From an uncultured Thermodesulfobacteriota bacterium (GTDB lineage Bacteria > Desulfobacterota > DSWW01 > CAZFWM01): a DNA stretch of 55,560 nucleotides. The position numbers and the translations under genes are program-made. Below, piece by piece: positions 3,415 to 46,187 of this stretch. The stretch is from the NCBI GenBank assembly GCA_964522545.1, contig CAZFWM010000002.1:22289-77848 (forward strand), read 5' to 3'. The notes beneath the pieces were generated by a model. That model had not been told where the DNA came from. It searched no databases and saw only the letters and a list, made by a program, of their open reading frames with translations. The first letter of the stretch is position 1; each line of letters begins with the position of its first letter.

Positions 3415-3438
3415 CCCTAACGTTGCGGCGTCTTTGTT

Positions 3439-4629
3439 ATGGAAAGAATCTTATTTCTGATCGTCGACCCTGTTCCCGGCATGCGACGCGCCATACGGAG
3501 CATGCTCTGGAGCATTGGGTGTAAGAGGGTCCTTGATGCCCCTGACGGCCAGACAGCCTGGCGGCTCTTGAACAGGGAAGGAACTGTGGGCTTCATCGTC
3601 GCAGACTGGACGCCCCCCAGCAATATGGCCATAGAGCTGCTGGATCGGGTGCGAAAGGAGCCGATGTTCAGCTCCATCCCTTTCCTCCTCCTCGTGGGTG
3701 CCGTGAGCCCTACAATCGTGGCCAGGGCGGCCGAGACCGAGGTTGACGGCTGCATCATCAAGCCTTTTATATTAAAGACTCTCGAGGAGAAGATCACAAC
3801 CATACTCAACCGGAGAGAGAAACCCGGGCCGGCTGAAGACCACATTCGTCGCGGCGAGATCTTTATCGCCGGGCATCTCTATTCCGAGGCGCTCCATGAG
3901 TTCAAAACGGCGCTGGCTCTCTTCCCGAACAGCGCCCGGATCCGCACGCGCATCGGCCAGATCTATGAAAAGATCGGCTTCGATACGGAAGCGAGGCGGC
4001 AATATATAGAAGCGACGGAGAAGAATCCCAAGTATGTGAAGGCGCATCAGACCCTCGGCGATTTCTACGAAAAGCTTCACCGGCACGATGACGCCATCGT
4101 CGCGCTGGAGCGGGCGAGCCGGATCAGCCCGCAAAATCCGGATCGCCAGATGCAGCTTGGGAAGGCCTACCTCGAGATCGGACTGATCGAGGAAGCGGAG
4201 CAGCGATTTGAAAAGGCTGTCGAGCTTGACCCTGCCAATATGGATCGCAAGATAGACATTGCCGAAGCCTACTATGAAAAGGACTATACTTATCAGGCCA
4301 TCAATGCATTCAAGGCATCCCTCCAGACGGGCCGCGTGCCCGCCCACCTGTACAACCGGATCGGAATCGCCCTGCGCCGAGAAGGTAACTTGGAGGAGGC
4401 CATTCACTTTTACAACAATGCGATCCGGCTATCACCCGGGGACGAAGTGATTCACTATAATCTCGCCCGGGCCTACATGGAGAACGATGAGCGTAGTCTG
4501 GCCCTGAAATCGCTTCAAAAGGCACTGCATCTCCGCCCTGATTTCGATGAAGCCAAGGCAATGATGAGCCGCCTCACACAGGATGAGAGTGACCATGGAA
4601 AAGCAGAAAGCAGAAATCGACAAGACTGA
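3439..4629 (+). CDS. CheY-like receiver domain + TPR repeat protein
   Basis: Receiver motifs (LIVD, IVADW, IIKPF) followed by many TPR motifs (e.g. YNRIGIALRREG, HYNLARAY). Confidence 0.88.
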   Translation: MERILFLIVDPVPGMRRAIRSMLWSIGCKRVLDAPDGQTAWRLLNREGTVGFIVADWTPPSNMAIELLDRVRKEPMFSSIPFLLLVGAVSPTIVARAAETEVDGCIIKPFILKTLEEKITTILNRREKPGPAEDHIRRGEIFIAGHLYSEALHEFKTALALFPNSARIRTRIGQIYEKIGFDTEARRQYIEATEKNPKYVKAHQTLGDFYEKLHRHDDAIVALERASRISPQNPDRQMQLGKAYLEIGLIEEAEQRFEKAVELDPANMDRKIDIAEAYYEKDYTYQAINAFKASLQTGRVPAHLYNRIGIALRREGNLEEAIHFYNNAIRLSPGDEVIHYNLARAYMENDERSLALKSLQKALHLRPDFDEAKAMMSRLTQDESDHGKAESRNRQD

Positions 4630-5206
4630 GCTGCCGGATGACATCCACGCCGTGGAGGAAGACGCCGGCAAGGACGAAGCGCAATCGGCGGCGATGCACC
4701 CGCTTATACGCAGGGATCTCATCCTGATAGCATGCCTGGTCCTTTCAGGCATGGCGGGCGGAGTCGCCTTTGGGGTCCTGCACCCCAGGCTCTCGCCCCC
4801 CGTTGCTGCTCCATCCCCCGAATCCACAACGCCGGCGGTGGGCGAGGATGTCTTCTCGATGGAAGGGCCGGATCAAATCATGCCCTGCATCCTCGAGCCC
4901 TTCTTGCTCGCTTCCGAAGACGCTTTTTTCAGGGTACAATTTACCATGGAGCTGGAATCGGAGGTGGTCCTTTCAGAGGTCCGAGACAGGAAGACTGAGA
5001 TAAGAGCCGAGATCTACCGGCTTCTCAAGGATAGCGAGCCGATCGATGTGATCAGCCGCGATCGCTCGCTCAAGAGCAGGCTCCTGGATGCGGTGAACCA
5101 GAGCCTCAGGAGCGGCCAAGCTCTCAGAGTCGATTTCAACATCCTCCACGATCAGGAACAGGCGCCGCTAGATCCTCTTCTCACCCCTGGGGCCGTGGGC
5201 GAGTAG
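4595..5206 (+). CDS. fliL: Flagellar basal body-associated FliL family protein
   Basis: Single TM helix, then LEPFLL...FFRVQFTMEL...EIRAEIYRLL...LKSRLLDAVN, the FliL pattern. Confidence 0.75.
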   Translation: MEKQKAEIDKTELPDDIHAVEEDAGKDEAQSAAMHPLIRRDLILIACLVLSGMAGGVAFGVLHPRLSPPVAAPSPESTTPAVGEDVFSMEGPDQIMPCILEPFLLASEDAFFRVQFTMELESEVVLSEVRDRKTEIRAEIYRLLKDSEPIDVISRDRSLKSRLLDAVNQSLRSGQALRVDFNILHDQEQAPLDPLLTPGAVGE

Positions 5207-5347
5207 GAATTCGCGCATGGCCTCGAGAGCCAGCGTCCGTGAGGTGCGATCCTTGCTAAAGATCCGCCGTGCCTCTACCATGAAGGTTTCGTTCAACTCT
5301 TTGATGGTGAGGGAGATCGGCCTGCTCCCGTTGACGTAGATGATCAT
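5168..5347 (-). CDS. 59-aa hypothetical protein downstream of a sigma28-type promoter
   Basis: GGAGGTG RBS before ATG 5347; MIIYVNGSRPISLTIKELNETF...; overlaps the fliL 3' end convergently. Confidence 0.5.
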   Translation of the reverse strand: MIIYVNGSRPISLTIKELNETFMVEARRIFSKDRTSRTLALEAMREFLLAHGPRGEKRI

Positions 5348-5442
5348 GAATCCTTCACCTCCCAACGTATCGTAACCCCCTAAATAAATAGACACCCGAC
5401 CGGCTCTCCTCATTACAAAAGAGACTGTGGTCCCTACTCTAT

Positions 5443-5469
5443 TTATCGGAATTTCAGTGGGGATCTTGA
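5443..5469 (-). promoter_or_regulatory. Sigma28-type promoter
   Basis: Minus strand TCAA-N15-TCCGATAA versus consensus TAAA-N15-GCCGATAA. Confidence 0.6.
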
Positions 5470-5576
5470 GTCCGACTTGGTCCTTGCGGCTTTTATCCCT
5501 ATGTAGCTTTCCAAATAATAAGCGGGACGTGCGGGGATATCTCGAGATGAAGTTAATGAATTCAGGAAGAAAAGGG

Positions 5577-5596
5577 TGTTGAACTGTTAGTTGGGC
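5577..5596 (-). other. Truncated attC (R''-spacer-L'' half only)
   Basis: Minus strand GCCCAAC-TAACA-GTTCAACA; R'' is complementary to the cassette start GTTGGGC at 7459; no L'/R' follows. Confidence 0.6.
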
Positions 5597-5819
5597 TTTC
5601 CTGCCCTCGCGTCCTCAATGTCACTCGGGAGTCGTCTATGTCCTTCTCCTCGGGCCCGTTTCGCGCCTAGTTCAGGACAGACGCGGATTTTGGGCCAACA
5701 TGGCCCGATGGATGGCCCGATTACCGTTGTTACGCTATCCTGGTCCGAGAATCGGGCCGTTTCGGCCCGTTGAATGGCCCGATCTAAGAAAGGGCGTAGG
5801 CCAACCGATCCTTCCGTCG

Positions 5820-7304
5820 TCATGGGCGGATCACCTCATACCGAGTTGCCCTGCCGGCACCGGTCATCTTTAGCAATCCCAGTTTGGTCAGCTTCCGGAT
5901 ATGGTTCTTGGCTGTCCGATTGGGAAGCTTCATTGCCTTCTCGTATTCGGCGGTCGCCACCGAGTTGCGCTTCGAAATCCACTTCCAGCCGACGAGCTCG
6001 GATTTGTTGAGCTGTTCCCGGATTTCGCTGGGCAACGTGGAGACTGCCGATTCTCGGCTCCGGTAGATCGTAAGCACGAGGTAGTCGCCGGCCAGGGCGA
6101 AAGTCGGCAGGGGAAGGTTAAGCCTCTGCGCCTGGCCCTTCAGGCTCTTCTCCAAGCCGAATCCCTGCTCCTCGGCCATCCCCATGCGGGCGAACGTGTA
6201 ATGCAGAACAGGATTCCGGCTCTTCATCGGCGCCGTAAACGACTGGAGTTCTTCAAGAGTGACCGGTGGAATTGGCCCACCGGGACTCTTGACTGTAATA
6301 GTATCCGCGTTCACCACGAGCTGGCATTTCTGCCCGGCGAGGTCATAGTCGCGATGGATCAGTGCATTGACCACGGCCTCGCGGATCATGTCGAACGGCA
6401 AATCCACTTCCTCCTTCCGTTCCATGCGGCGCCGGTCGATGGTGCTTGGAAGCACAGTGTTCAGCCACTTTTCCAGGAGGTCTGGAATGAGCACCAGGGC
6501 CTGACCGAATTCCTTCCGCGACGACGATCCATCCGGCAAATCCGCCCGCGCCAGCAGCCCGGCCTGCGGCATGGCGTTGCGCGCCTGCTTGCCGAACAGG
6601 AGCAACCCAAAGCCGCTGGGCGTCGCCGCGTCGCCGTCGCCCACGAGCACTCCCTGCTGTCGGAGCATTCGCAAGAACTCATGCGAGCCCACCTCTGGAA
6701 TCAGTTTTGCTTTCGAACGATAGCGTTTCAGCGCTTGCCGGGAGAGATCCTCCAGAGCCACCGCCGTCATTGGGTCTTCGTACATCGAGAGCTTGATCGG
6801 CTCCTCTTTTGGCCTCGCCGGTTGCAGCCGCGTCCATGCGAAAAACTCCTGATTCTCTGCCAGAATCTCGTCCTGAAGGTCGCGGTCGAACATGTGGACT
6901 GTCACACCGTGGCGGCGGAGGTGCTCGATGCCCTTCCCCGCCACGCGCGGGTTGTCGTCCTCGAGACCCACATAGACCTCCTTGATGCGAGCGCTGACGA
7001 TGTGTCGCGCGCAGCCACGTTTGGGCTCGTTGCGGTCGAGACAGGGCTCGAGAGTTGTAAAGAGTGCGCAACCATCCAGCCGTTCTCCAGGGCACTTACG
7101 CTCAAGCAGAATGAACTCGGCATGATCGCCATCGCGCAGTTCCCCCCGCGCCGCCGTCACAACCGAACCGTCCGGCCGCACCAGCACGGCACCCACCGAC
7201 GGACTCGGCGACCCGTCAGGCCGGTGTTCAGGCACCGACTGGCGCATAACCTCAATCGCCTTCTTCATCATCGAGCGCGAATCGATCTTCCCTTTCGCTG
7301 GCAT
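5820..7304 (-). CDS. RibD-like Zn-dependent deaminase fused to HATPase_c_4 (RecG C-terminal-like) and winged HTH
   Basis: PSVGAVLV, DHAEF and TLEPCLDRNEPKRGC (deaminase); REAVVNALIHRDY, SPGG, RNPVL and EEQGFG (HATPase_c_4); RTAKNHIRKLTKLGLLKMTGAGRATRY (wHTH). No RibD reductase domain. Confidence 0.85.
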   Translation of the reverse strand: MPAKGKIDSRSMMKKAIEVMRQSVPEHRPDGSPSPSVGAVLVRPDGSVVTAARGELRDGDHAEFILLERKCPGERLDGCALFTTLEPCLDRNEPKRGCARHIVSARIKEVYVGLEDDNPRVAGKGIEHLRRHGVTVHMFDRDLQDEILAENQEFFAWTRLQPARPKEEPIKLSMYEDPMTAVALEDLSRQALKRYRSKAKLIPEVGSHEFLRMLRQQGVLVGDGDAATPSGFGLLLFGKQARNAMPQAGLLARADLPDGSSSRKEFGQALVLIPDLLEKWLNTVLPSTIDRRRMERKEEVDLPFDMIREAVVNALIHRDYDLAGQKCQLVVNADTITVKSPGGPIPPVTLEELQSFTAPMKSRNPVLHYTFARMGMAEEQGFGLEKSLKGQAQRLNLPLPTFALAGDYLVLTIYRSRESAVSTLPSEIREQLNKSELVGWKWISKRNSVATAEYEKAMKLPNRTAKNHIRKLTKLGLLKMTGAGRATRYEVIRP

Positions 7305-7452
7305 GATCAGGTCTCCCCGGCGATTACCGTACTCCGATCGTCATCATCATTACCATCATCATTGTCGTCACCGCTACTATGGTCGTTGCTATCACCGTCA
7401 CCTAGCCCTCCCCCGCCGCGTAATCGCACCATTCTTTGCAGCATCACTTCCA

Positions 7453-7508
7453 GCCCAACGACTCGCGTCACCGGCGCGCGAATAGCGCGTACAGTGCACG
7501 CGTTATGC
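7453..7508 (-). other. attC site with shortened R''-L'' spacer
   Basis: Minus strand GCATAAC-G-CGTGCACT...GGTGACG-CGAGTC-GTTGGGC; L''/L' pair with an extrahelical G; spacer is 1 nt instead of the usual 5. Confidence 0.75.
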
Positions 7509-7548
7509 GATACTTATGCATGTCCAATCGCTAACTGTTTACTTCCGA

Positions 7549-10500
7549 CTACTTCAGCGGGCCGATCTTATCTGCCTCGATCGGCAATGCTGTCAAGTAC
7601 ATCATTGGTACGTGCGTGTTGGTTACAAGCCTATCATCAATGCGGGCCGGATCCGGCACGAATCTGACAATACGTTGGAGACCCGTGGGGTTGGCCCTTA
7701 TCCAGTTAATTCGCCGGACATGCTTATCTAACTCATCCTTCGCCTCTCCTCGGAAGCGGCGGCAGATTTCGGCGACCTCGGCAACTGTCCGGGCAAGTTG
7801 CAAGCGCTTGCACTCGATGAGCTGAATTTCTCCACTAGTCTTCCACGCCAAGACATCGATATCACCGAGCTCGGCGGAACCACCCAGTTCAGTCATCTTT
7901 ACTTCATTACGCGCCTCCCATCCTTTCTCGCGCAGTTGATTAGCAACTGACCGAGCAAAGGCATAACCCCTCTCGCTGTTTACCGTTCCGATGTATTGTC
8001 TAATCTTCTGCGAAGTGAAGAACTCTTGTGGTAAATGCCCTTGTTCAGACCTCTCCAGCAGGTACCTGACTCCAAGCCTGAGTGCACCGGCCCCATAGAA
8101 TACCTTGTCATCGTCTTCCTTACCGAAGACAAGAATAGGTCTGGCTGTTGCGGAGAGCCTACGACGGAATCGCCAGGGATAAAGGTCTCTATTCCTGAAC
8201 CCCGGTGGCGGCCTCTCCCAGGCAGTACGATGGAAAATGCTAAAAGTTCGAATAAACGCTTCGCTGACATCAAGCGACAGGCTACGGGCTGTAGTCAGCA
8301 TCGTTTTGAGATCGCCTAGCGTTGTCTGCACAACAACGCTGTCGCATTCAACCGCTAAATCCAATAGCTCCGCCAACCCTTCAATCGCCTCGTCCGGCGT
8401 TAAACCAAACTCATTCTGAAATGCCCGAATGAAATCGGCAGAGAATGACTCGTCAGCTCGCGCTCGTTCACTGGGACGCTTGCTTTGATACAATTTGCTA
8501 TAGTCTCCTGCCGCAGCTTCGAATTTTTCGCGGAAGTAGCCAGTTAAGAACGGCTTGATGACGGTATCATAGAAACCACGCTTGATGGTGTACTCGCCAT
8601 TCGGATGTAGGTCGATTCGGGGTTCAATCAGATCGCTGTTGACCGCGTCAGAGTCCATTGCAACCTCGACTAGCAGTGCTGCTTTGGCCAGCAGTTCATC
8701 CAGTCCCCACCGAGAAAGCTGGCGGCCACCTGCCTCTGGACACTCACAGATGGCCATTTCTAGGATTGTGCGAGTGGGTAAAGAAACATTGTCCCGATCG
8801 GATTCCCGCTGCTGCGCGACCGTGAGGACGTCCTCCTCCGGCGCATACAAGGCAAGCACTGCCTGTGCGGTTCTGCGCCAGTGGTCACGGTCTTGGATAA
8901 CGGCTTCATGTACACCAAGGGCCTCACGGATCACCGACGCCCTATCGAGTTGCTGCAACAGTTCCCGGAGCTGGTTCCAGACCTTGTCTACAACCTTGTG
9001 CAGGAATTCATTGCACTCGGACTTTGACGCGCTACTGGTACCAAGCCGCGCTGCCGTACAACCTTCGGACAGCCTGAGCTTGGAGAAGACAAAATCCTCA
9101 TGAGCCAGAAAGATCGGCTTCTGACCTTGCCGCGCCAGCAAGTGCTCAATGGGGTAATACGTACGAAAGCGATGAATAACACGCATACCCGAGACACCGA
9201 TCACCCTGCTCATTAGGTCATCGAGGGCGATCTCGTCAACATCCCCCGTCACACCTTGATGCAGGCTAACAAGGCCTTTCGCAATGCCGTGCAGAACCAA
9301 CCTCTCACCTGTATTCTGAGGCTGCTGGAAATGCATGAGGAAATCAGATGGAAACTTGACCTCAGCGGTTCGCTGGTCGAGGTTGACAGCAACTTCTGGC
9401 TCGCCGATCGGAACGTCCGGCTGGGGTTCTACGTAGTCCACAGATACAACGACTTCGCCAAAGTTGAGGCGAATCTCTATTGCGCCGGCTGGCGCCTTTG
9501 GGTAAAGAGCTTCGACCTCGAACACTAGCCTGTCGTACAAGCCAATGAACCCAGACCACATCTCGTAGAGGAGGCGCCGGCTCTGCTCGTCACCCTCCCG
9601 TGGCTCTACCAGGAGCCAGCTTGGGCCGCGAGGTGTCTCCACCGCGCCTGCCAGCACGCCCGCCCGCAAATGACCCAGGCTTGCGTATATCGGGCGACCT
9701 TGCATGGACTTGAAGTACGCGTCCCTGCCGAACCGCATGACAGGTGAATATGAACCGGCTGTTGTCTGAAGGACATGGCGGTCCACCAGGTTTCTCACCT
9801 CCTCCCGGACAGGCAGGACCATGTCGTTACCAATGGAAAGCATAGAGCCTTGATCAACGGGCAGGTCACGCGGCACTAGCTGGTAGTGCAGGCGACGCCA
9901 GAAGCAATAGAAGTTGTAGTCACCATTAATATTCTGGAAGTAGACGCCCTCCCCCGTTGCCCATTCCTTCTGCTTGATGCATTTGAGGTAGCGTGTGATT
10001 GGTCGGTGGAACTCACCAGCTAACATGAGGAGGTCCGATATTCGAATAACCGACAAGCGCCACTGATCCGGCCAATCCTTGAAGCCCAGAGCAAACCCGC
10101 GGCCGAGGCCGCCCATCACCAGCAGCGTCATTCCTTCGGCGAAGTCTGGTAACGACCGACAGTGACTGGATGCTTTGCTCAGATATTCCTCGAGTCCTGC
10201 CCTTAGTTCCTCCGGGTACTCCATAAAACTGGAAAGGCCCTGGGCATCCAGCCAATCCATCCTGTCATGCAGTAGGACAACATGGAGATACTTGTTGATA
10301 TCGTACTTGAGCAACCAAGCGTGCAGTGAAGGCACTTTTCCGTCCGGTACTGGCGGCTCAAGAGAGTCGGTCTCCCCTTTCAACTCCCAGAGCCCTTCTC
10401 TCTCAACTTGGCGCGCCTGGCGGTTGGCGAGCGCGTCTGCGAACGTCTGAAGGTAGCCCATCCGCCCTAATTCAAATAGAACAAAGCGCCTGATTGCAGG

Positions 10501-11232
10501 ACTGACTGCGTGAGGCAAAGCAAGGACCAGTTCACCACCGAAGTCGACGAGAGGGCGTCTCTCCAGGGACGAGTGTCCGGTCGACTCCTCCGCGAGTGCT
10601 TGCTTGTCTTCATCCCGCAGGATAAACGGCTCCAATACCTGACGATTGATACCCAGCGCATCAAGTTCGCTGACTGTGAAGGTTATCGCGCGGGCCCGGT
10701 CTGCCACCTGGGTTGCCGGTGCCAATCTAATCGTACTTTTTGGGGTCGAAGACTCGATGTGCCATCTCCGCAGGTCGACCCGTTCGGCAACGCAGTCGCT
10801 TAGTTTCAGCAATGCAAATGCGGGAACCAACTGATCCCGCCATTTCTGTGGAGCCCTGCGGCTGCCCAGGGTTTCGAGGACTACCTGAACGAAGTAATCA
10901 TTTGATTCCCAGATACCTTCGAATACCCGCCGATTTCCTTCGGGAGTCTCTACATTGGTGACGTGGACGTCTTCGACAGGATCCTCGAGCAATGCAATCT
11001 GGGTTTTGCCGAGCTGCCTGTTCAGCCAGTGACCAATTTCAGTTAAGCCAGGCTTACGACGTCCGTGGCAGTGTGCCACGGCCAGGTGAACGAGGGTCTC
11101 TATACGGATTGTATTGGCCTGTAGGGCAGACGCTGTCAGTAGGCCTCCGAGTTGCGATACAGTAGACTTTAGATGGTACTTTCCAAGGAATCCTGCAATG
11201 CGTTTCAGCTCAAGAGCATTGAGTGGAACCAT
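7549..11232 (-). CDS. 1227-aa protein with C-terminal PD-(D/E)xK (NERD-like) nuclease domain
   Basis: Long uninterrupted ORF; C-terminal GDIDVLAW...IQLIECKRL motif; the N-terminal ~1080 aa are not recognisable by eye. Confidence 0.8.
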   Translation of the reverse strand: MVPLNALELKRIAGFLGKYHLKSTVSQLGGLLTASALQANTIRIETLVHLAVAHCHGRRKPGLTEIGHWLNRQLGKTQIALLEDPVEDVHVTNVETPEGNRRVFEGIWESNDYFVQVVLETLGSRRAPQKWRDQLVPAFALLKLSDCVAERVDLRRWHIESSTPKSTIRLAPATQVADRARAITFTVSELDALGINRQVLEPFILRDEDKQALAEESTGHSSLERRPLVDFGGELVLALPHAVSPAIRRFVLFELGRMGYLQTFADALANRQARQVEREGLWELKGETDSLEPPVPDGKVPSLHAWLLKYDINKYLHVVLLHDRMDWLDAQGLSSFMEYPEELRAGLEEYLSKASSHCRSLPDFAEGMTLLVMGGLGRGFALGFKDWPDQWRLSVIRISDLLMLAGEFHRPITRYLKCIKQKEWATGEGVYFQNINGDYNFYCFWRRLHYQLVPRDLPVDQGSMLSIGNDMVLPVREEVRNLVDRHVLQTTAGSYSPVMRFGRDAYFKSMQGRPIYASLGHLRAGVLAGAVETPRGPSWLLVEPREGDEQSRRLLYEMWSGFIGLYDRLVFEVEALYPKAPAGAIEIRLNFGEVVVSVDYVEPQPDVPIGEPEVAVNLDQRTAEVKFPSDFLMHFQQPQNTGERLVLHGIAKGLVSLHQGVTGDVDEIALDDLMSRVIGVSGMRVIHRFRTYYPIEHLLARQGQKPIFLAHEDFVFSKLRLSEGCTAARLGTSSASKSECNEFLHKVVDKVWNQLRELLQQLDRASVIREALGVHEAVIQDRDHWRRTAQAVLALYAPEEDVLTVAQQRESDRDNVSLPTRTILEMAICECPEAGGRQLSRWGLDELLAKAALLVEVAMDSDAVNSDLIEPRIDLHPNGEYTIKRGFYDTVIKPFLTGYFREKFEAAAGDYSKLYQSKRPSERARADESFSADFIRAFQNEFGLTPDEAIEGLAELLDLAVECDSVVVQTTLGDLKTMLTTARSLSLDVSEAFIRTFSIFHRTAWERPPPGFRNRDLYPWRFRRRLSATARPILVFGKEDDDKVFYGAGALRLGVRYLLERSEQGHLPQEFFTSQKIRQYIGTVNSERGYAFARSVANQLREKGWEARNEVKMTELGGSAELGDIDVLAWKTSGEIQLIECKRLQLARTVAEVAEICRRFRGEAKDELDKHVRRINWIRANPTGLQRIVRFVPDPARIDDRLVTNTHVPMMYLTALPIEADKIGPLK

Positions 11233-11331
11233 CCCCGCACCTAACGATGTCTTATGGTGACCTGGAGAGCGCTTGGGCGACCTCCTCTGACCAAAAGGAG
11301 GTATTCAAGTAATCGCCGCGTTACTCGAACC

Positions 11332-11394
11332 GCATAACGTCCTGGGCGATCAGCAGCGACGCGAAGCGTCGTCGACTGCATCGCCGGGTTGGGC
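11332..11394 (-). other. attC site
   Basis: Minus strand GCCCAAC-CCGGC-GATGCAGT-(gacgc ttc gcgtc stem)-GCTGATC-gcccaggac-GTTATGC. Confidence 0.85.
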
Positions 11395-12174
11395 AGCACG
11401 CCCGTCAGTCTCAAGAGACGGTACCGATCGAGGGTTGTCAGATCCGTACCGGTAACACAAGTGCTGCATAGTAAAGCCCTCAAGTTCCGCGAACTGATAA
11501 GGATTTGTATGAATACCCCCCGGGATCTCAAGCCACTTCCGAACTGTCTGGATGAATACTGACAGGCTCTTCGCCTTTGGGCTACCGCTCTCTTCGATTG
11601 GATAGTGGCCGTACGGACGACGCCCCTTCTCCGGCAGGAATTCGAACGCTCCTTGGGCCAGGGAGACAACTAGAAGTGGATACTCGAGCTGTTCATCACG
11701 AAGGCCCACGTCGCGATACCAACGGCCGAGGAGCCCTGGCGTCAGCTTTGGCGAGTCGAACGCAAATAAAAACGTTGCAACGTAACTGTTGCGCGCCGTA
11801 GCTGCCTTCTTGAACGATTGCAGGTTCGTCAGCCCTTCCCTGAACGCTCGCTTGTCAAGAATGGTCTTGACCTCAATGACGCGCTTCAGCGCCTCTGGCT
11901 GGACGACGACCAGGTCTCCCAACCGAAAGAGGTAAGGCGCTGGATAGTGTTCATCGACAAAGAGTATGTCGCCTTGCTTCGACACGAACCCATCGGGGCA
12001 GTATGCGAATCCCGTACGAAGTGAGTGCCTCCCGGACAGCATCGGGCGGAGAGACTCCCTCAGTATCTGCTCATGATGCTCGCCAATTGACGGGTTGTGA
12101 TGTGTGAACTCGCGCAACCTCTCAAGCTGGGAGAGCATCTCCCTCGCCATTCCCTCGTAGAGCTTTGCGTTCAC
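11350..12174 (-). CDS. DUF6602 / NucC-like restriction-endonuclease-fold protein
   Basis: HNPSIGEHHEQILRESL...TGF...SKQGDILFVD...VIEVKT pattern; stop lies inside the attC. Start taken as GTG 12174 (AGGTGA RBS); the track gives GTG 12213. Confidence 0.75.
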   Translation of the reverse strand: MNAKLYEGMAREMLSQLERLREFTHHNPSIGEHHEQILRESLRPMLSGRHSLRTGFAYCPDGFVSKQGDILFVDEHYPAPYLFRLGDLVVVQPEALKRVIEVKTILDKRAFREGLTNLQSFKKAATARNSYVATFLFAFDSPKLTPGLLGRWYRDVGLRDEQLEYPLLVVSLAQGAFEFLPEKGRRPYGHYPIEESGSPKAKSLSVFIQTVRKWLEIPGGIHTNPYQFAELEGFTMQHLCYRYGSDNPRSVPSLETDGRAAQPGDAVDDASRRC

Positions 12175-12577
12175 GCTTTCACCTGTCTGCCCTAGTCCAT
12201 ATCGAGTTTCCACGTATGAGCCTTTTATCTTCCTTCCAGCTATATATAGCTCCAGAGCCGTTTAGTCAACTAATCAAAATTACAATATATTCCAGAGAAT
12301 TGAACCCACACTTCGGGGTTATAGGTAGTTTCTACTTAACTCCAATGGGTGATATAAATCAAATTTTATCCACCGGGCTGCGTACACCTTTGCCTCCCCT
12401 GTTTAGCACGTGAATGAAAATTATCATTCTCTGCGCCTCTGCGCGAGGTCCAGATCTTTCGTTCAATCTCTCTCATTTCGACCGCTTCCTACTGAGATTT
12501 CAACCGGAAGGAGAAATCGTACATGAATCAGAATCAGACGACCGCCGGCGGCGAGCCGGTGGTCGTCTGATTCTGAT

Positions 12578-12594
12578 TGGGCAATTTCTGCCCA
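12578..12594. promoter_or_regulatory. Candidate sigma54-activator binding site (copy 1)
   Basis: Palindrome TGGGCA-atttc-TGCCCA starting 147 bp upstream of the -24 GG. Confidence 0.5.
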
Positions 12595-12722
12595 GGATCC
12601 GGCAAAGGGCCGAACGGATATTTCCCTTACAGTTAAAACCGGCCCGGGAGGTGACTTTTAAAATAGTCTTGAATTACAGTTGGTTGCATCTGTTTTGCCC
12701 ACCCTTCTGACTCCCTGCAAGC

Positions 12723-12739
12723 TTGGCATACTGATTGCT
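12723..12739 (+). promoter_or_regulatory. Sigma54 promoter (duplicated flgF promoter)
   Basis: TTGGCATACTGATTGCT, GG-N10-GC. Confidence 0.8.
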
Positions 12740-12821
12740 CAGGACTCTCTGTGGATTTCAGATTAAAGATGACCTAAAGACCGGGGGTCTCCCCCCTCTC
12801 CTCTTCCGGAGGGATAGCTGA

Positions 12822-14018
12822 ATGGACAACGGAATCTATGCCGCACTCACCGGATACCTGGCCCAAGCAAGGCGCCTCGACCTGATGTCGAACAACCTTG
12901 CGAACGCCAATACGGCCGGCTTCAAAGATGAAAAATTATTTTTTAATGGTATTGTGATGTTGGGTATTGATAAATTAAGAACTCAAGATCAGAATCCGAA
13001 TAAATCTAAATGTCTAGAAAAAGGATTTGATATATTTAATAAATCAATCCAAGACACGCCACATTATAAGTTGGTGAAGGAATTTTGTGAAAGTCCTGAT
13101 TTTAATATTGAAGATAGTGAATATTGCAAGCTTGTTGATTTTGTATTATCTATAAGTAAGAAGCCATATATACATAATGAGCGTGAAATAATAGAATCTG
13201 GGTTAAAAAGAGCAAAAGATTATCTTGACTTATATAAGCGGATGAAGTTAGACAAGAAAGTTGAGCCGATAAAAGTAAAAGCACTGTTTAATGGAGATTA
13301 CATAATTACAGATGGTTTGCATAGGGTTGCTATAGCATTGGTTATGGGGCATGAGACTGTACCTGTAGAGATAATTGAAGTTGATGATCAGATAAATGCA
13401 ATGCTAGAAAGGCTTATGACAGAATATCCTGTTGGAAGAAGATTATATATCCCAATAGAGCATCCAATATTTAGCAATTGGAAACTTCTGAGAGATGATA
13501 CAAGATGGAAATTGATGTCTAGTGCATTTGATTGGAAGGGTAAAAAAGTATTGGATATTGGTTGTTATACAGGATATTTTTCGCATAAAATTGCAAAAAA
13601 AGGGGGAATTGTTATCGGAGTAGAGACAGATGTAACTAAATTAAGGGTAGCTAAAGAAGAAAATAGTCTGTTAAAATTAGATGTAGAGTTTATTCTTGGA
13701 AGTTTTGATACGTATATCAAAGGAAAACAATTTGACTGTGTCATATTCTTCAGTGTATTGCACTGGATACTTAAGGATAAAGGGATTGAAGGAGTTAAAG
13801 AATCTTTAACATTAATATCAGTTTCCTCACCAGTCATGTTTTTTGATATGGGCCAAAATAATGAGGAAAAGATGAGAACTGAAGAATGGAACCATGGAAT
13901 GACAATTGACAAAGATACAATACCTGGATTAATTATAGGAAATTCAGGCTATACAGATTTCAAACATTTAGGCACAAGCGACTCAGGAAGAGATGTTTTT
14001 AAATTTTGGAGAAGATGA
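12822..14018 (+). CDS. Chimera: FlgF N-terminus (35 aa) + ParB/Srx-like domain + class I SAM methyltransferase
   Basis: MDNGIY...[13 protein letters not shown], then an abrupt switch to AT-rich DNA; PIKV...YIITDGLHR (ParB/Srx) and KVLDIGCYTGYFS (SAM motif I). Confidence 0.8.
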   Translation: MDNGIYAALTGYLAQARRLDLMSNNLANANTAGFKDEKLFFNGIVMLGIDKLRTQDQNPNKSKCLEKGFDIFNKSIQDTPHYKLVKEFCESPDFNIEDSEYCKLVDFVLSISKKPYIHNEREIIESGLKRAKDYLDLYKRMKLDKKVEPIKVKALFNGDYIITDGLHRVAIALVMGHETVPVEIIEVDDQINAMLERLMTEYPVGRRLYIPIEHPIFSNWKLLRDDTRWKLMSSAFDWKGKKVLDIGCYTGYFSHKIAKKGGIVIGVETDVTKLRVAKEENSLLKLDVEFILGSFDTYIKGKQFDCVIFFSVLHWILKDKGIEGVKESLTLISVSSPVMFFDMGQNNEEKMRTEEWNHGMTIDKDTIPGLIIGNSGYTDFKHLGTSDSGRDVFKFWRR

Positions 14019-14501
14019 ATAAATAGGTGGTTAGTAAATGGGTCATGTAATTGATGAAAGATTAAACAAGCACGTCAGGCCTACAGCCGATTTGTTCAAA
14101 CCGTCCTTGACCGAACAGAACCCCTGGCCAAAGCCTTATAGATAGGGTACTCTTGATCCAGGACACTCAAATTGCCAAAATAGCGGACAGAATTTCTGAG
14201 ACGCGATACTAGACTGCTCATGAGCCAAAATTCTCCAATGGCTGAATCCAAAACAATCCACCGGAATTTCTTGGACGTTTTGTTCCTGCTCTCCATCTCG
14301 GGCATATAGTACTTAATACGGCGGAGCAGCAACCGGACAATTTTCCCTCATTCTCTGAGCCTCTGCTCGAGGTCCAGATCTTCCGTTCAATCTCTCTCAT
14401 TTCGACCGCTTCCTACTGAGATTTCAACCGGAAGGAGAAATCGTACATGAATCAGAATCAGACGACCGCCGGCGGCGAGCCGGTGGTCGTCTGATTCTGA
14501 T

Positions 14502-14518
14502 TGGGCAATTTCTGCCCA
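14502..14518. promoter_or_regulatory. Candidate sigma54-activator binding site (copy 2)
   Basis: TGGGCAATTTCTGCCCA, identical to copy 1. Confidence 0.5.
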
Positions 14519-14646
14519 GGATCCGGCAAAGGGCCGAACGGATATTTCCCTTACAGTTAAAACCGGCCCGGGAGGTGACTTTTAAAATAGTCTTGAATTC
14601 CAGCAAGTTACATCTGTTTTGCCCGCCTCTCTAACTCCCTGCAAGC

Positions 14647-14663
14647 TTGGCATACCGATTGCT
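14647..14663 (+). promoter_or_regulatory. Sigma54 promoter of the flgF operon
   Basis: TTGGCATACCGATTGCT, GG-N10-GC. Confidence 0.85.
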
Positions 14664-14745
14664 CAGGACTCTCTGTGGATTTCAGATAAAAAATGACCTA
14701 AAGACCGGGGGGCTCCCCCCTCTCCTCTTCCGGAGGGATAGCTGA

Positions 14746-15528
14746 ATGGACAACGGAATCTATGCTGCACTCACCGGATGCCTGGCCCAGGTAAGGCGCC
14801 TCGACCTGATGTCGAACAACCTTGCAAACGCCAACACGGCCGGCTTTAAAGTAGACACGCCGGTGTTCGAGCAGTTCAATACACCGAAACCGGCCACGGT
14901 TCAAGGTCCCTTCGTGGCCGAATCCATGAATGAGGCCTATGTCATGGGAGCAACGCCACGCCAGAACCAGTACGCCGCCTGCGCGGGGACGATCACCGAT
15001 CACTCCCCCGGCCCTTTGAATGAGACCGGAGGGAGCCTCGATATGGCAATCAAGGGGAAGGGATTTTTCGCGATCGAGACCCCGGGGGGGGAGCGTTACA
15101 CACGCAATGGATGCTTCAGCCGCAGCTCGGAAGGGGATCTCGTCACGGCCGAGGGCCACGCCGTCCTGAACACCAACGGGGAGCGCATCAACCTGTCTGA
15201 ATCCGGAGAGGTGATTGTTCAGAAAGACGGGCTGATCCTTCAGGACGACAATCCTGTCGGCTCCCTCCGGATCGTGGACTTCCCCGACAAGTTGGTCTTG
15301 GAGAAAGAGGGGGACAATTGCTTCAAATACAACGGGAATACCCCCCCCGCCGGTCCCGATGAGATCCACGTGCTCCAGGGCTGCTATGAGCGCTCCAATG
15401 TCAACGTGGTTAAAGGGATCGTGACCATGATCGAGGTGACCCGCCAGTTCGGGGCATACCAGAAGGTCATCTCCTTTCTGAAGAACGCCGAGTCCCGCTG
15501 TATCAATGAAGTAGGAAAGCTCGCATGA
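14746..15528 (+). CDS. flgF: Flagellar basal-body rod protein FlgF
   Basis: [32 protein letters not shown] and ERSNVN; precedes flgG. Confidence 0.93.
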
Positions 15529-20526: not shown

Positions 20527-20829
20527 ATGAAGATTATCGATGGGATACCGATCGATCTGCTCAAATGGTCCGAAAAGATCGACGGAAGTAAGCAGAAGGC
20601 CGACAAGCGTGGGAAGCCGAAGGAGGGCCCTACCGGTGAAAAAGTCGACATCTCCCAGGCAGCCAAGGACATCTCCCAGGCCAAAGAGGAGATGACCGGG
20701 GTGCCCGAGGTCAACATCGCTCGGGTCGATGAGGTCCGGGATGCCTTGAAGAATGGAAAGATCGAGGTCGACACCCTCGAGCTGGCCGAAAAACTCATCC
20801 GGGAGCATTTGCTCGAGGATATTCTGTAA
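20527..20829 (+). CDS. flgM: Anti-sigma28 factor FlgM
   Basis: EKVDIS and RVDEVRDALKNG...LAEKLI; position in the operon. Confidence 0.88.
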   Translation: MKIIDGIPIDLLKWSEKIDGSKQKADKRGKPKEGPTGEKVDISQAAKDISQAKEEMTGVPEVNIARVDEVRDALKNGKIEVDTLELAEKLIREHLLEDIL

Positions 20830-20895
20830 TATCGTCTCCAGGAGACATCCACATCCACGACGGAACGTGACCGATCGAAAGCAAGGAGAGCTACA

Positions 20896-21399
20896 GTGAA
20901 CGAGATCATTCAGGAGCTGATTGCCATCCTCGACAAGGAGCTGGCCCTTTACAGGCGTCTCCTCCAGCTGCTGCGCGAGGAGAAGAAAATCATGGTGGAC
21001 TACTCGATCGACGATCTCGGCAGGAGCAACATGGAGAAGGAGACCATAGGCTTGAAGCTCCGTCTCCTCGAGGAGTCCCGTTTGATGCTCATGAAGCGGC
21101 TCAGCCCTTACATCGATAAAGAGCCGGAGGAGATCACCCTCGATGACCTGTGCGAGAAGGCCGAAGATCCTTTGGCTTCGGAGATCGCTGCCCGGCGCAC
21201 TGCCCTCAAGGCGGAGATCGCCGGAGTGAGGGAGCACAACGAGCGCAACAGAGCCCTTGCTCTGCACTCGCTGAGCCACATCCAGGGTATGATCAATCTG
21301 ATTCGCGCGATGAATTCAGGGTCGCCGACCTACGAGCCGACGGGCAGCATCAAACCGCCCGAGAACCGGCTTGGAAGGGTCGTGCGGCAGGAATTATAA
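20896..21399 (+). CDS. flgN: Flagellar export chaperone FlgN
   Basis: Helical protein with NERNRAL and TY motifs between flgM and flgK; GTG start with GGAG RBS. Confidence 0.85.
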   Translation: MNEIIQELIAILDKELALYRRLLQLLREEKKIMVDYSIDDLGRSNMEKETIGLKLRLLEESRLMLMKRLSPYIDKEPEEITLDDLCEKAEDPLASEIAARRTALKAEIAGVREHNERNRALALHSLSHIQGMINLIRAMNSGSPTYEPTGSIKPPENRLGRVVRQEL

Positions 21400-41671: not shown

Positions 41672-41733
41672 CTACAACGTTGCGGATCAGCGGCCGATCG
41701 TCAGCGAGGTCCGACTGAATCCGCTTGTTCTGC
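41672..41733 (-). other. Canonical attC site
   Basis: Minus strand GCAGAAC-AAGCG-GATTCAGT...GCTGATC-CGCAAC-GTTGTAG. Confidence 0.88.
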
Positions 41734-42240
41734 GTCCTCTCCGTCCAGACTGAGCTCCAGCTTCTCCGTCTTGGGACGGAATCCGCGGTCAACGTAGAAG
41801 CTTCTCGCTCTGCTGTTTTCTATCCACACGCTGGTCTGGACGGATGTCAAACCCTTCACTCTGACCCACGCAATGGCTGCATCGAATAGCGCTGTGCCAA
41901 TGCCTTGATCGCGGTGGGCCTTGTCGACCACGGCGTTCTCAATCATCGCGAAATGGTGTGGCTTGAACATCGGGAAAGGCGGATGCGATCGCTTCTCGAC
42001 GTTCACGAATCCGACTATCTCCCCGTCCCGCTCTGCTACAAGGTAGTCAGCGTCTTCATCTGTGATGAACTTGGCGAGCGCATCCGGAGCGCGTGCGTCT
42101 CCATCGACGGGTTGAAAGACGTCAGGGAGGAGCTCGGCGTGATAGTGATCCAACTGCCGATAGAGACGTTGGATCTCCTCGATGTCATCCGGTGTCGCCG
42201 TGCGTATGGTCATTTCACTCATCGTCTTTGTCCGCAGAAC
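41678..42240 (-). mobile_element. Solo integron-type gene cassette (GNAT)
   Basis: Starts with GTTCTGCG (42240), complementary to its own attC R''; the ATG follows 18 nt later. Confidence 0.8.
41701..42222 (-). CDS. GNAT family acetyltransferase
   Basis: TIRTAT, VVDKAHRDQGIGTALF and NSRARSFYVDRGF. Confidence 0.92.
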   Translation of the reverse strand: MSEMTIRTATPDDIEEIQRLYRQLDHYHAELLPDVFQPVDGDARAPDALAKFITDEDADYLVAERDGEIVGFVNVEKRSHPPFPMFKPHHFAMIENAVVDKAHRDQGIGTALFDAAIAWVRVKGLTSVQTSVWIENSRARSFYVDRGFRPKTEKLELSLDGEDAEQADSVGPR

Positions 42241-46128: not shown

Positions 46129-46187
46129 CCTCTGAGGAACCCATGAACCCAGGAACTCTTTTCCTGGTTTCCTGGGTTCCTCAGAGG
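46129..46187. repeat. Intergenic inverted repeat / hairpin
   Basis: cctctgaggaaccca...tgggttcctcagagg. Confidence 0.7.

Follow-up and report, generated by a model that had tools for sequence, protein, structure and literature searches.

Positions 5590-12191 of the window, read on the minus strand, are very probably an orphan piece of an integron array, in which three cassettes were once joined by an integrase at G|TT points. By the window we mean the whole stretch of DNA analyzed here, 55,560 nt from an uncultured bacterium of the phylum Thermodesulfobacteriota (genome G000, contig C2, positions 22289-77848; the whole contig measures 77.9 kb), and coordinates refer to it unless another contig is named. 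An earlier note on this DNA, made from the sequence alone, had described an integron cassette array without an integrase, carrying three co-oriented genes for nuclease- or deaminase-type proteins. Both statements are borne out. The genes at 11350-12213 (287 aa; likely start 12174), 7549-11232 (1227 aa), and 5820-7304 (494 aa) all lie on the minus strand, and the block answers to an attC-site cluster without an integron-integrase (CALIN), set within a flagellar gene cluster. Under the definition of Cury et al. (PMC4889954), a CALIN has at least two same-strand attC sites, spaced by less than 4 kb, and no intI in the vicinity. In the window, 3824 nt separate two complete sites of the same strand; the contig reaches at least 27 kb further on both sides and has no match to the integrase model TIGR02249 (no intI on its 77.9 kb at E ≤ 0.001), so the definition applies. 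The block is not a complete integron, in which intI adjoins attI and the array. Following the minus strand, the order is a DUF6602 nuclease gene with its attC site (site A), then a gene of the Upx defense family with its attC site (site B), and then a deaminase gene followed by a repeat element of about 225 nt and a truncated attC; we refer to these as cassettes 3, 2, and 1, respectively.

The attC sites were sought with a surrogate covariance model in place of IntegronFinder's own, built from sequence outside both the window and its genome. The DNA beside 20 TIGR02249-positive intI genes was fetched, and eight genomes with obvious arrays yielded 27 attC sites, which were given a hand-set R/L-box structure to make model R1. 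A refined model, R2, contains 35 sites, and all sites in both models come from these eight other genomes of the phylum. With E ≤ 10 as limit, R1 has only three matches in the 55.6 kb of the window, and each is on the minus strand. Site B (7453-7508, minus strand; R'' GCATAAC, R' GTTGGGC), the attC of cassette 2, scores 30.4 bits with R1 (E 2e-6) and 30.6 bits with R2. Site A (11332-11394, minus strand; R'' GCCCAAC, R' GTTATGC), the attC of cassette 3, scores 29.2 bits (E 5e-6) and 32.4 bits, respectively, and covers the last 45 nt of the DUF6602 gene. The earlier note had placed attC sites at 7453-7508 and 11332-11394, and the independent model matches these coordinates to the base. Moreover, both sites contain the inner motif ...TGCAG.CGAC...GCTGAT... 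that is typical of attC sites of the phylum. When R2 is run over the window without filters, the next best match after the three sites has 15 bits.

The borders of the cassettes carry the second line of evidence. Site A ends in GTTATGCG and site B starts with CGCATAAC; likewise, site B ends in GTTGGGCT and AGCCCAAC stands at 5589-5596. Thus the 8-nt match between 5' core and own R'' that had been reported earlier holds in cassettes 2 and 1 alike, at 8/8 nt. Real arrays adjoining intI show such a core chain (6/6 nt) in 12 of their 27 adjacent site pairs, as compared with 42 of 1225 pairs taken all against all. By these borders, the whole of cassette 2 runs from 11337 to 7459 (3879 nt). Cassette 1 begins at the recombination point with TTGGGC (7458-7453), which opens its 5' untranslated part (7305-7458, minus strand) and is complementary to the R'' box GCCCAAC at 5590-5596 (minus strand), the remnant of the attC of cassette 1. 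A metagenome contig, L107, carries a deaminase cassette with 92% protein identity and attC matches on both sides of the gene. Homology between L107 and the window begins at ...CG|TTGGGC (7458), the attC upstream being different in the two, spans the gene and a 3' region of about 224 nt, and ends directly after GCCCAAC at 5590 (in AGCCCAAC). Past this heptamer, L107 continues into a full attC of 33.1 bits, whereas the window continues into unrelated sequence. Since the homology breaks at G|TT at one end and at the end of R'' at the other, cassette 1 is a real cassette, its attC truncated after R''. Of the half site previously proposed at 5577-5596, the part at 5590-5596 therefore stands, as a truncated attC, and 5577-5589 is unrelated flank. 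Of 80 metagenome loci with homologues of the deaminase gene, 7 have flanking attC matches (E ≤ 0.001). Contigs with relatives of the Upx and deaminase genes, 90-95% identical, also occur in two further marine studies, where they are short and come from mixed organisms, so that gaps in their coverage carry no meaning; one marine contig agrees with the window as far as the R'' box of site B and diverges beyond it, and in one metagenome run other sequence is joined inside site B (loose end 7465). These contigs give a hint of cassette-level variation, no more.

On this evidence, an integrase very probably made both internal junctions. In contrast, both outer ends of the array are non-canonical. 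At the end of cassette 1, the attC is cut after R''. At the other end, the 5' core expected for cassette 3, GTTGGGC, is absent, the nearest match being 6/8 nt at 12188-12195. The region upstream of cassette 3 (12192-12333, minus strand) is instead 80% identical to the roughly 140 nt upstream of a methylase/endonuclease pair, a restriction-modification (R-M) cassette on contig C88 of the same genome. To take the junction with the C88-like region for a decayed cassette 3 core would be an over-interpretation, with no core found there. On C88 itself (locus L021, 7646-9825), genes for an N4/N6 DNA methylase and a NotI-like endonuclease are followed by an attC of 29.6 bits, and the contig ends right after it.

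The block sits between two groups of flagellar genes: fliA, a DUF2802 gene, a response-regulator gene, and a weakly FliL-like gene (22.7 bits, under the Pfam cut-off of 24.6) on one side, and flgF-flgG-flgA on the other. The interval from the fliL-like gene to flgF carries an insertion of about 9 kb, which is the site of the three-cassette block. In all three class-level relatives examined, fliA and flgF are about 2.2 kb apart, as opposed to 12.5 kb in the window, which points, weakly, to an empty interval in these distant relatives. The three-gene island is single-copy in its own genome. As no Pc promoter is in view, we propose that expression would need cassette-borne promoters or read-through. 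Between the DUF2802 and response-regulator genes, at 3415-3442 (minus strand), lies a weak match to the attC model (15 bits, E 0.24; CCATAAC...GTTAGGG) with almost nothing between R'' and R', which could be chance or an attC scar.

A search of the genome for intI, which had been suggested as a check, found an intact copy on contig C75 (485 bits; the TIGR02249 cut-off is 265) and a fragment on contig C95, broken by one stop (216 bits). Across the phylum, intI scores over the cut-off in 103 of 301 genomes, this one counted. According to Cury et al. (PMC4889954), about half of CALINs occur in genomes that encode IntI elsewhere, and the window block, small and with IntI encoded on another contig, resembles the CALINs described there; it departs from the typical case in that its last attC has shrunk to the R'' box. 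The same genome also holds at least six further attC matches, two on C386, two on C149, one on C457, and one on C88, from a search that scored 150 of 5128 candidates and missed the window's own sites. The C386 pair adjoins a C-terminal intI fragment, and the genome seems to hold several scattered cassette clusters (C386, C149, C457).

A single cassette on the window's own contig is instructive here. At 41672-42240 (minus strand), about 30 kb from the array, lies a 562-nt unit with one gene (42222-41701), encoding a GNAT protein (Pfam Acetyltransf_1, 6e-18), and one attC (41733-41672; R'' GCAGAAC; 23.9 bits with R1, 22.9 bits with R2). Its 5' core GTTCTGC (42240-42234) is complementary to its own R'' at 7/7 nt. 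As a single cassette it is of textbook form, it stands at a non-att site, and it shows that this genome does take up insertions outside att sites. Loot et al. (bioRxiv 10.1101/2022.09.11.507474) report that IntI inserts cassettes at GWT sites throughout the genome and propose this as the origin of small CALINs and of single attC sites lacking an integron-integrase (SALINs). Having its attC intact and a G|TT junction at the 5' end, and standing outside any array, the GNAT cassette is like the SALINs, or attG insertions, of that work; the three-cassette block, in contrast, lacks the end signatures that the attG route predicts.

Several points weigh against the block as a cassette array of this genome. 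The surrogate model stands in for IntegronFinder's own, and its E-values are rough. Against the consensus R'' RYYYAAC and R' GTTRRRY, the R' of site A (GTTATGC) and the R'' of site B (GCATAAC) are each one position off; AAC and GTT are present in both sites, and the real arrays behind the model depart in comparable ways. The folding energies of the single sites are not better than those of shuffled sequences (z -0.7 to -2.3), and within 4500-15000 Rfam has no match at E ≤ 1. The first 20 kb of C75 and of C95 contain no attC array beside their intI. The genome is a bin of 669 contigs (completeness 95%, contamination 5.2%), in which the intI contig may therefore come from some other organism. 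The relatives compared are no closer than class level, with FlgG about 56% identical, which makes the empty site weak evidence. Finally, the surrogate model finds no attC at 13 loci, from many phyla, that carry Upx relatives 62-81% identical to the window protein; among close Upx relatives altogether the count is 0 of 27 loci, where the model may favor sites of its own phylum. A heuristic scan for AAC...GTT hairpins with RYYY/RRRY scoring was dropped: it gave 194 matches genome-wide and decoys behaved alike (AAC 27/1179 pairs, ACA 53/2203). One candidate from that scan, site X at 5693-5775, consists of the repeat modules behind the deaminase gene and is no attC.

With these points in mind, one may ask whether the hairpins are attC sites at all, rather than terminators, a genome-specific palindromic repeat, or transposon-like inverted repeats around Upx, with core matches arising by chance. 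Sites A and B do have the same end heptamers in inverted order around Upx, their folding as single sites is unremarkable, and AAC...GTT hairpins are common in the genome. However, a model made from foreign attC sites picks exactly sites A and B and their strand, cassette 1 recurs elsewhere with its breakpoints at the recombination point, no transposase is seen, and the island is single-copy; we consider such an origin of the hairpins very improbable. For a true cassette array, how the block reached the flagellar cluster is a separate matter: it would have been cut from a larger array and moved by some other recombination, or built in place and then eroded. The former could quite well be right, the arguments for and against it being about evenly matched. 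A fragment of a larger array, of this or another organism, would have been moved into a variable flagellar spot by integrase-independent recombination that truncated the last attC. Both block ends are non-canonical, as this predicts, a second, unrelated insertion adjoins the block, which suggests that the interval has been hit repeatedly, and rearrangement is named among the sources of CALINs by Cury et al. (PMC4889954). Against such a move, no insertion sequence (IS) element, transposase, or other recombinase is seen in 5200-14750, and the cut, which coincides exactly with the end of R'', may also indicate an integrase-related event. Assembly in place, with cassettes inserted successively at attG by an integrase encoded elsewhere and the outer ends decaying later, was the reading of the earlier note. 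It is plausible, and we regard it as a possibility to be kept in view while inclining somewhat against it. The bin contains an intact intI, the GNAT cassette of the window's contig bears exactly the signature of such insertion, and the genome-wide GWT insertion of Loot et al. (bioRxiv 10.1101/2022.09.11.507474) was proposed for small CALINs and SALINs alike. Nevertheless, attG insertion predicts a complete 3' attC, and that of the window is cut after R''; the predicted 5' G|TTGGGC is absent; and the upstream region that cassette 3 shares with the C88 locus suggests a common platform or later recombination.

The adjoining insertion is of a different kind. A direct duplication of 504-505 bp, about 95% identical, occupies 12424-12928 and 14348-14852 and consists of the region upstream of flgF with its first 107 nt. 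Between the copies, 12929-14347 is an insert of 32% GC with a gene encoding an S-adenosylmethionine (SAM)-methyltransferase domain and a DGLHR motif near its start, which is joined, in the same reading frame, to the copied first 107 nt of flgF. The divergence of about 5% between the copies makes an assembly artefact seem unlikely, and the arrangement looks like a Campbell-type or similar insertion.

The cargo of the three cassettes had been described as defense-type, with each cassette probably an independent single-gene system. The defense character is supported from three sides: the Upx family is experimentally validated, the DUF6602 protein has Damona-like domains, and homologues of the deaminase gene stand amid type I R-M, AAA_13, and ABC-3C genes. 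By these likenesses, the three proteins would act as independent anti-phage effectors. The single-gene description applies less well to the deaminase cassette, which also carries the conserved noncoding repeat element of about 225 nt. As an orphan set of defense cassettes, the array is an already known type of element, a further case of the well-documented orphan cassettes that stockpile anti-phage genes, now in an uncultured marine lineage and with a full-length Upx. The unit of deaminase plus repeats is possibly new.

The Upx homologue of cassette 2 (7549-11232, minus strand; 1227 aa) is matched by the PADLOC Upx model at 3e-167 and by the structure 9wuf_A in the PDB at E 4e-101 over residues 19-1188. 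It is a full-length homologue, with N-terminal, middle, and C-terminal domains and the C-terminal D...ExK triad, and it is colinear over almost its whole length with the solved Upx of Zhou et al. 2026 (PMC13099982). Upx is also treated by Evans et al. 2026 (PMC13601566). With 618 bits against an equivalog cut-off of 1900 for NCBIfam NF042954, the window protein is a divergent member of the family. All three residues of the C-terminal PD-(D/E)xK triad, D-E-K, named by Zhou et al. (PMC13099982), are kept. At the N-terminal positions D122, D127, R129, E147, and D173 (numbering of the solved protein), the window protein has E, N, R, E, and D, and so differs from the solved Upx by D122 to Glu and D127 to Asn. 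By homology, it would act as a terminase-sensing dual nuclease. Within the phylum, few genomes have an Upx of this lineage (2 of the 400 others searched, at 25-28% identity), and relatives with 62-81% identity occur in metagenome-assembled genomes labeled Gammaproteobacteria, Clostridia, Nitrospira, Zixibacteria, and others, a scatter that indicates recent horizontal spread. The setting in an integron cassette has no mention in the sections of the two Upx reports cited here (PMC13099982, PMC13601566). In genome G243 of the same phylum, a distant Upx gene is likewise followed by an attC, of 40.8 bits. Integron defense genes are described as shorter than usual (Darracq et al., bioRxiv 10.1101/2024.07.02.601686); in contrast to these, the window Upx is full length, with 1227 aa against 1240-1272. 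Its 3.9-kb cassette puts the two attC sites barely below the 4-kb clustering limit of IntegronFinder, close to where standard integron software would split the array.

Cassette 3 encodes a DUF6602/PD-(D/E)xK nuclease that is NucC-like (11350-12213, minus strand; the likely GTG start at 12174 gives 274 aa). Matches are to Pfam DUF6602 (2.5e-17), PADLOC PD_DExK (1e-19), and NucC (3e-11), and weakly to Serratia NucC in the PDB (1e-5); a search of 400 other genomes of the phylum gives no homologue at E ≤ 1e-8. Darracq et al. (bioRxiv 10.1101/2024.07.02.601686) describe Damona, a defense cassette of the Vibrio cholerae integron, as a DUF6602 protein with matches to a Cas PD_DExK and to an endonuclease of the cyclic oligonucleotide-based antiphage signaling system (CBASS). 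Cassette 3 is like Damona in being a single gene in a cassette with the same domain signature, a likeness at the domain level only, and the protein would serve as a Damona-like nuclease effector. The setting differs, this being an orphan array of an uncultured marine bacterium and no Vibrio superintegron.

The product of cassette 1 (5820-7304, minus strand; 494 aa) has an N-terminal zinc deaminase, a middle domain, an HATPase_c_4 domain, and a C-terminal winged helix-turn-helix (wHTH). Pfam supports dCMP_cyt_deam_1 (6e-13) and HATPase_c_4 (5e-14), and the zinc-deaminase motifs HAE and PC...C are intact. The closest named models for the deaminase are RibD-type deaminase domains, under their cut-offs, and PADLOC gives no system beyond domain-level matches. 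The defense deaminases of the dCTP deaminase and AvcD type have an N-terminal kinase-like domain. Membership in that group was considered and rejected: the PADLOC dCTPase model matches only residues 73-111 (39 residues, E 4e-6), and Pfam finds no P-loop domain in the protein. What the cassette has in common with AvcID, a type III toxin-antitoxin deaminase defense (PMC10511110), and with dCTP deaminase systems is a likely effector of the zinc deaminase type, with the dCMP/CDA fold, and a conserved noncoding element alongside. It differs from AvcID in having HATPase_c_4 and wHTH domains, and in that its element, unlike the upstream RNA antitoxin of AvcID, lies 3' of the gene and resembles protein-binding DNA repeats. 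Among 8000 proteins scored, 1904 belong to the deaminase family at E ≤ 1e-10, and the best 120 relatives, whose source labels cover several phyla, share at least 67% identity. Thus the family is large (over 1,900 relatives), unnamed, and strongly conserved, with distant phyla sharing about 70% identity. We found no description of a deaminase-HATPase_c_4-wHTH family in the literature, in a search so narrow that it is a weak basis for calling the family undescribed. The neighbors of the homologues include type I R-M specificity subunits, AAA_13 proteins, parts of ABC-3C systems, RhuM, and an AlbA_2-HATPase_c_4 paralogue; RadC appears downstream in 9 of the 30 open reading frames (ORFs) scanned.

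The conserved noncoding region 3' of the deaminase gene (5597-5819, minus strand) contains two repeat modules, at 5747-5787 and 5685-5725. Each holds the 9-mer ATCGGGCCA twice in direct orientation, 12 nt apart, and once inverted. A 78-codon ORF at 5587-5823 is not conserved, being broken by frame-shifting indels in L107 and L109. The modules were surveyed in 77 sources, namely the window and 76 of the 80 metagenome loci; in the four loci dropped, the contig ends at the gene. The same plan recurs just after the stop codon, with a 9-mer of the form ATCnnnnCA in two direct copies at a 12-nt pitch and then an inverted copy: 73 of the 77 sources have at least one module scoring at least 21/27, and in 48 of the 77 the two best modules are exactly 62 nt apart. 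The chance rate of such modules is about four in 3.6 Mb of the window's own genome. The core of the module differs by clade, being GGGCC in the window and GCGAC, CGGAC, GCGCC, CCGCC, or CCGAC elsewhere. In an alignment of 66 distinct modules, 93.3% of cells pair between the inverted copy and the second direct copy, and 96.5% between the inverted copy and the first, fractions that are inflated because the modules were chosen by repeat score. Covariation is 0.43-0.44, against 0.12-0.14 in shuffles (0/500 as high), and seven of nine pairs change on both sides. Indeed, all three copies co-vary, beyond what hairpin partners alone would do.

The cores also vary with the protein. Eight of the ten protein columns with the best prediction of core type fall within residues 426-473, in the wHTH, and the top two, 462 and 466, are in its putative recognition helix. 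Relatedness confounds this measure; we take the apparent clustering in the wHTH as telling despite this. From these patterns, the repeats are probably the protein's own DNA sites, six per gene, each module making a palindromic operator with an extra half-site, and the modules may also have a role as RNA hairpins. Through its wHTH, the deaminase protein would then bind six cognate sites 3' of its own gene, and it may be held or regulated there until infection. A broader proposal is more tentative, and we would put it forward with some doubt: the family may be a widespread, horizontally mobile single-gene immune or toxin-like module, in which the protein's own DNA sites, or hairpins of the transcript, tether or silence the deaminase until infection, acting as the antitoxin. 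The co-evolving repeats give a handle on how a deaminase effector might be restrained, and the family may offer matched pairs of protein and DNA site with differing specificity. Deamination footprints in the repeats were sought and rejected, as transitions make up 126 of 212 copy-to-copy differences, which is not distinctive. No clear modules lie behind the AlbA_2-HATPase_c_4 paralogue in L115 or the tandem deaminase paralogue in L123. In L150, L161, L174, L175, L177, and others, extra modules follow the two cognate ones, with cores typical of other clades. These foreign-core modules often precede a RadC gene and could mean cross-talk or be remnants of lost paralogues.

The genome also holds other repeats. 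Two short sequences of 50-70 nt, at 14206-14276 and at 12464-12521/14388-14445, recur on many contigs with 78-91% identity, in about 18 and about 6 copies, respectively, perhaps as a small repeat family or a shared regulatory sequence. The inverted repeat GAGGAACCCAGGAACCCAGG also recurs. On C75 (L009, 1884-2320), it brackets a 124-codon ORF adjoining intI, and contig C2 has copies at 8375-8501, 20810-20932, and 68422-68470 in contig coordinates, the last of which falls inside the window at about 46134-46182. It is a separate palindromic repeat family.

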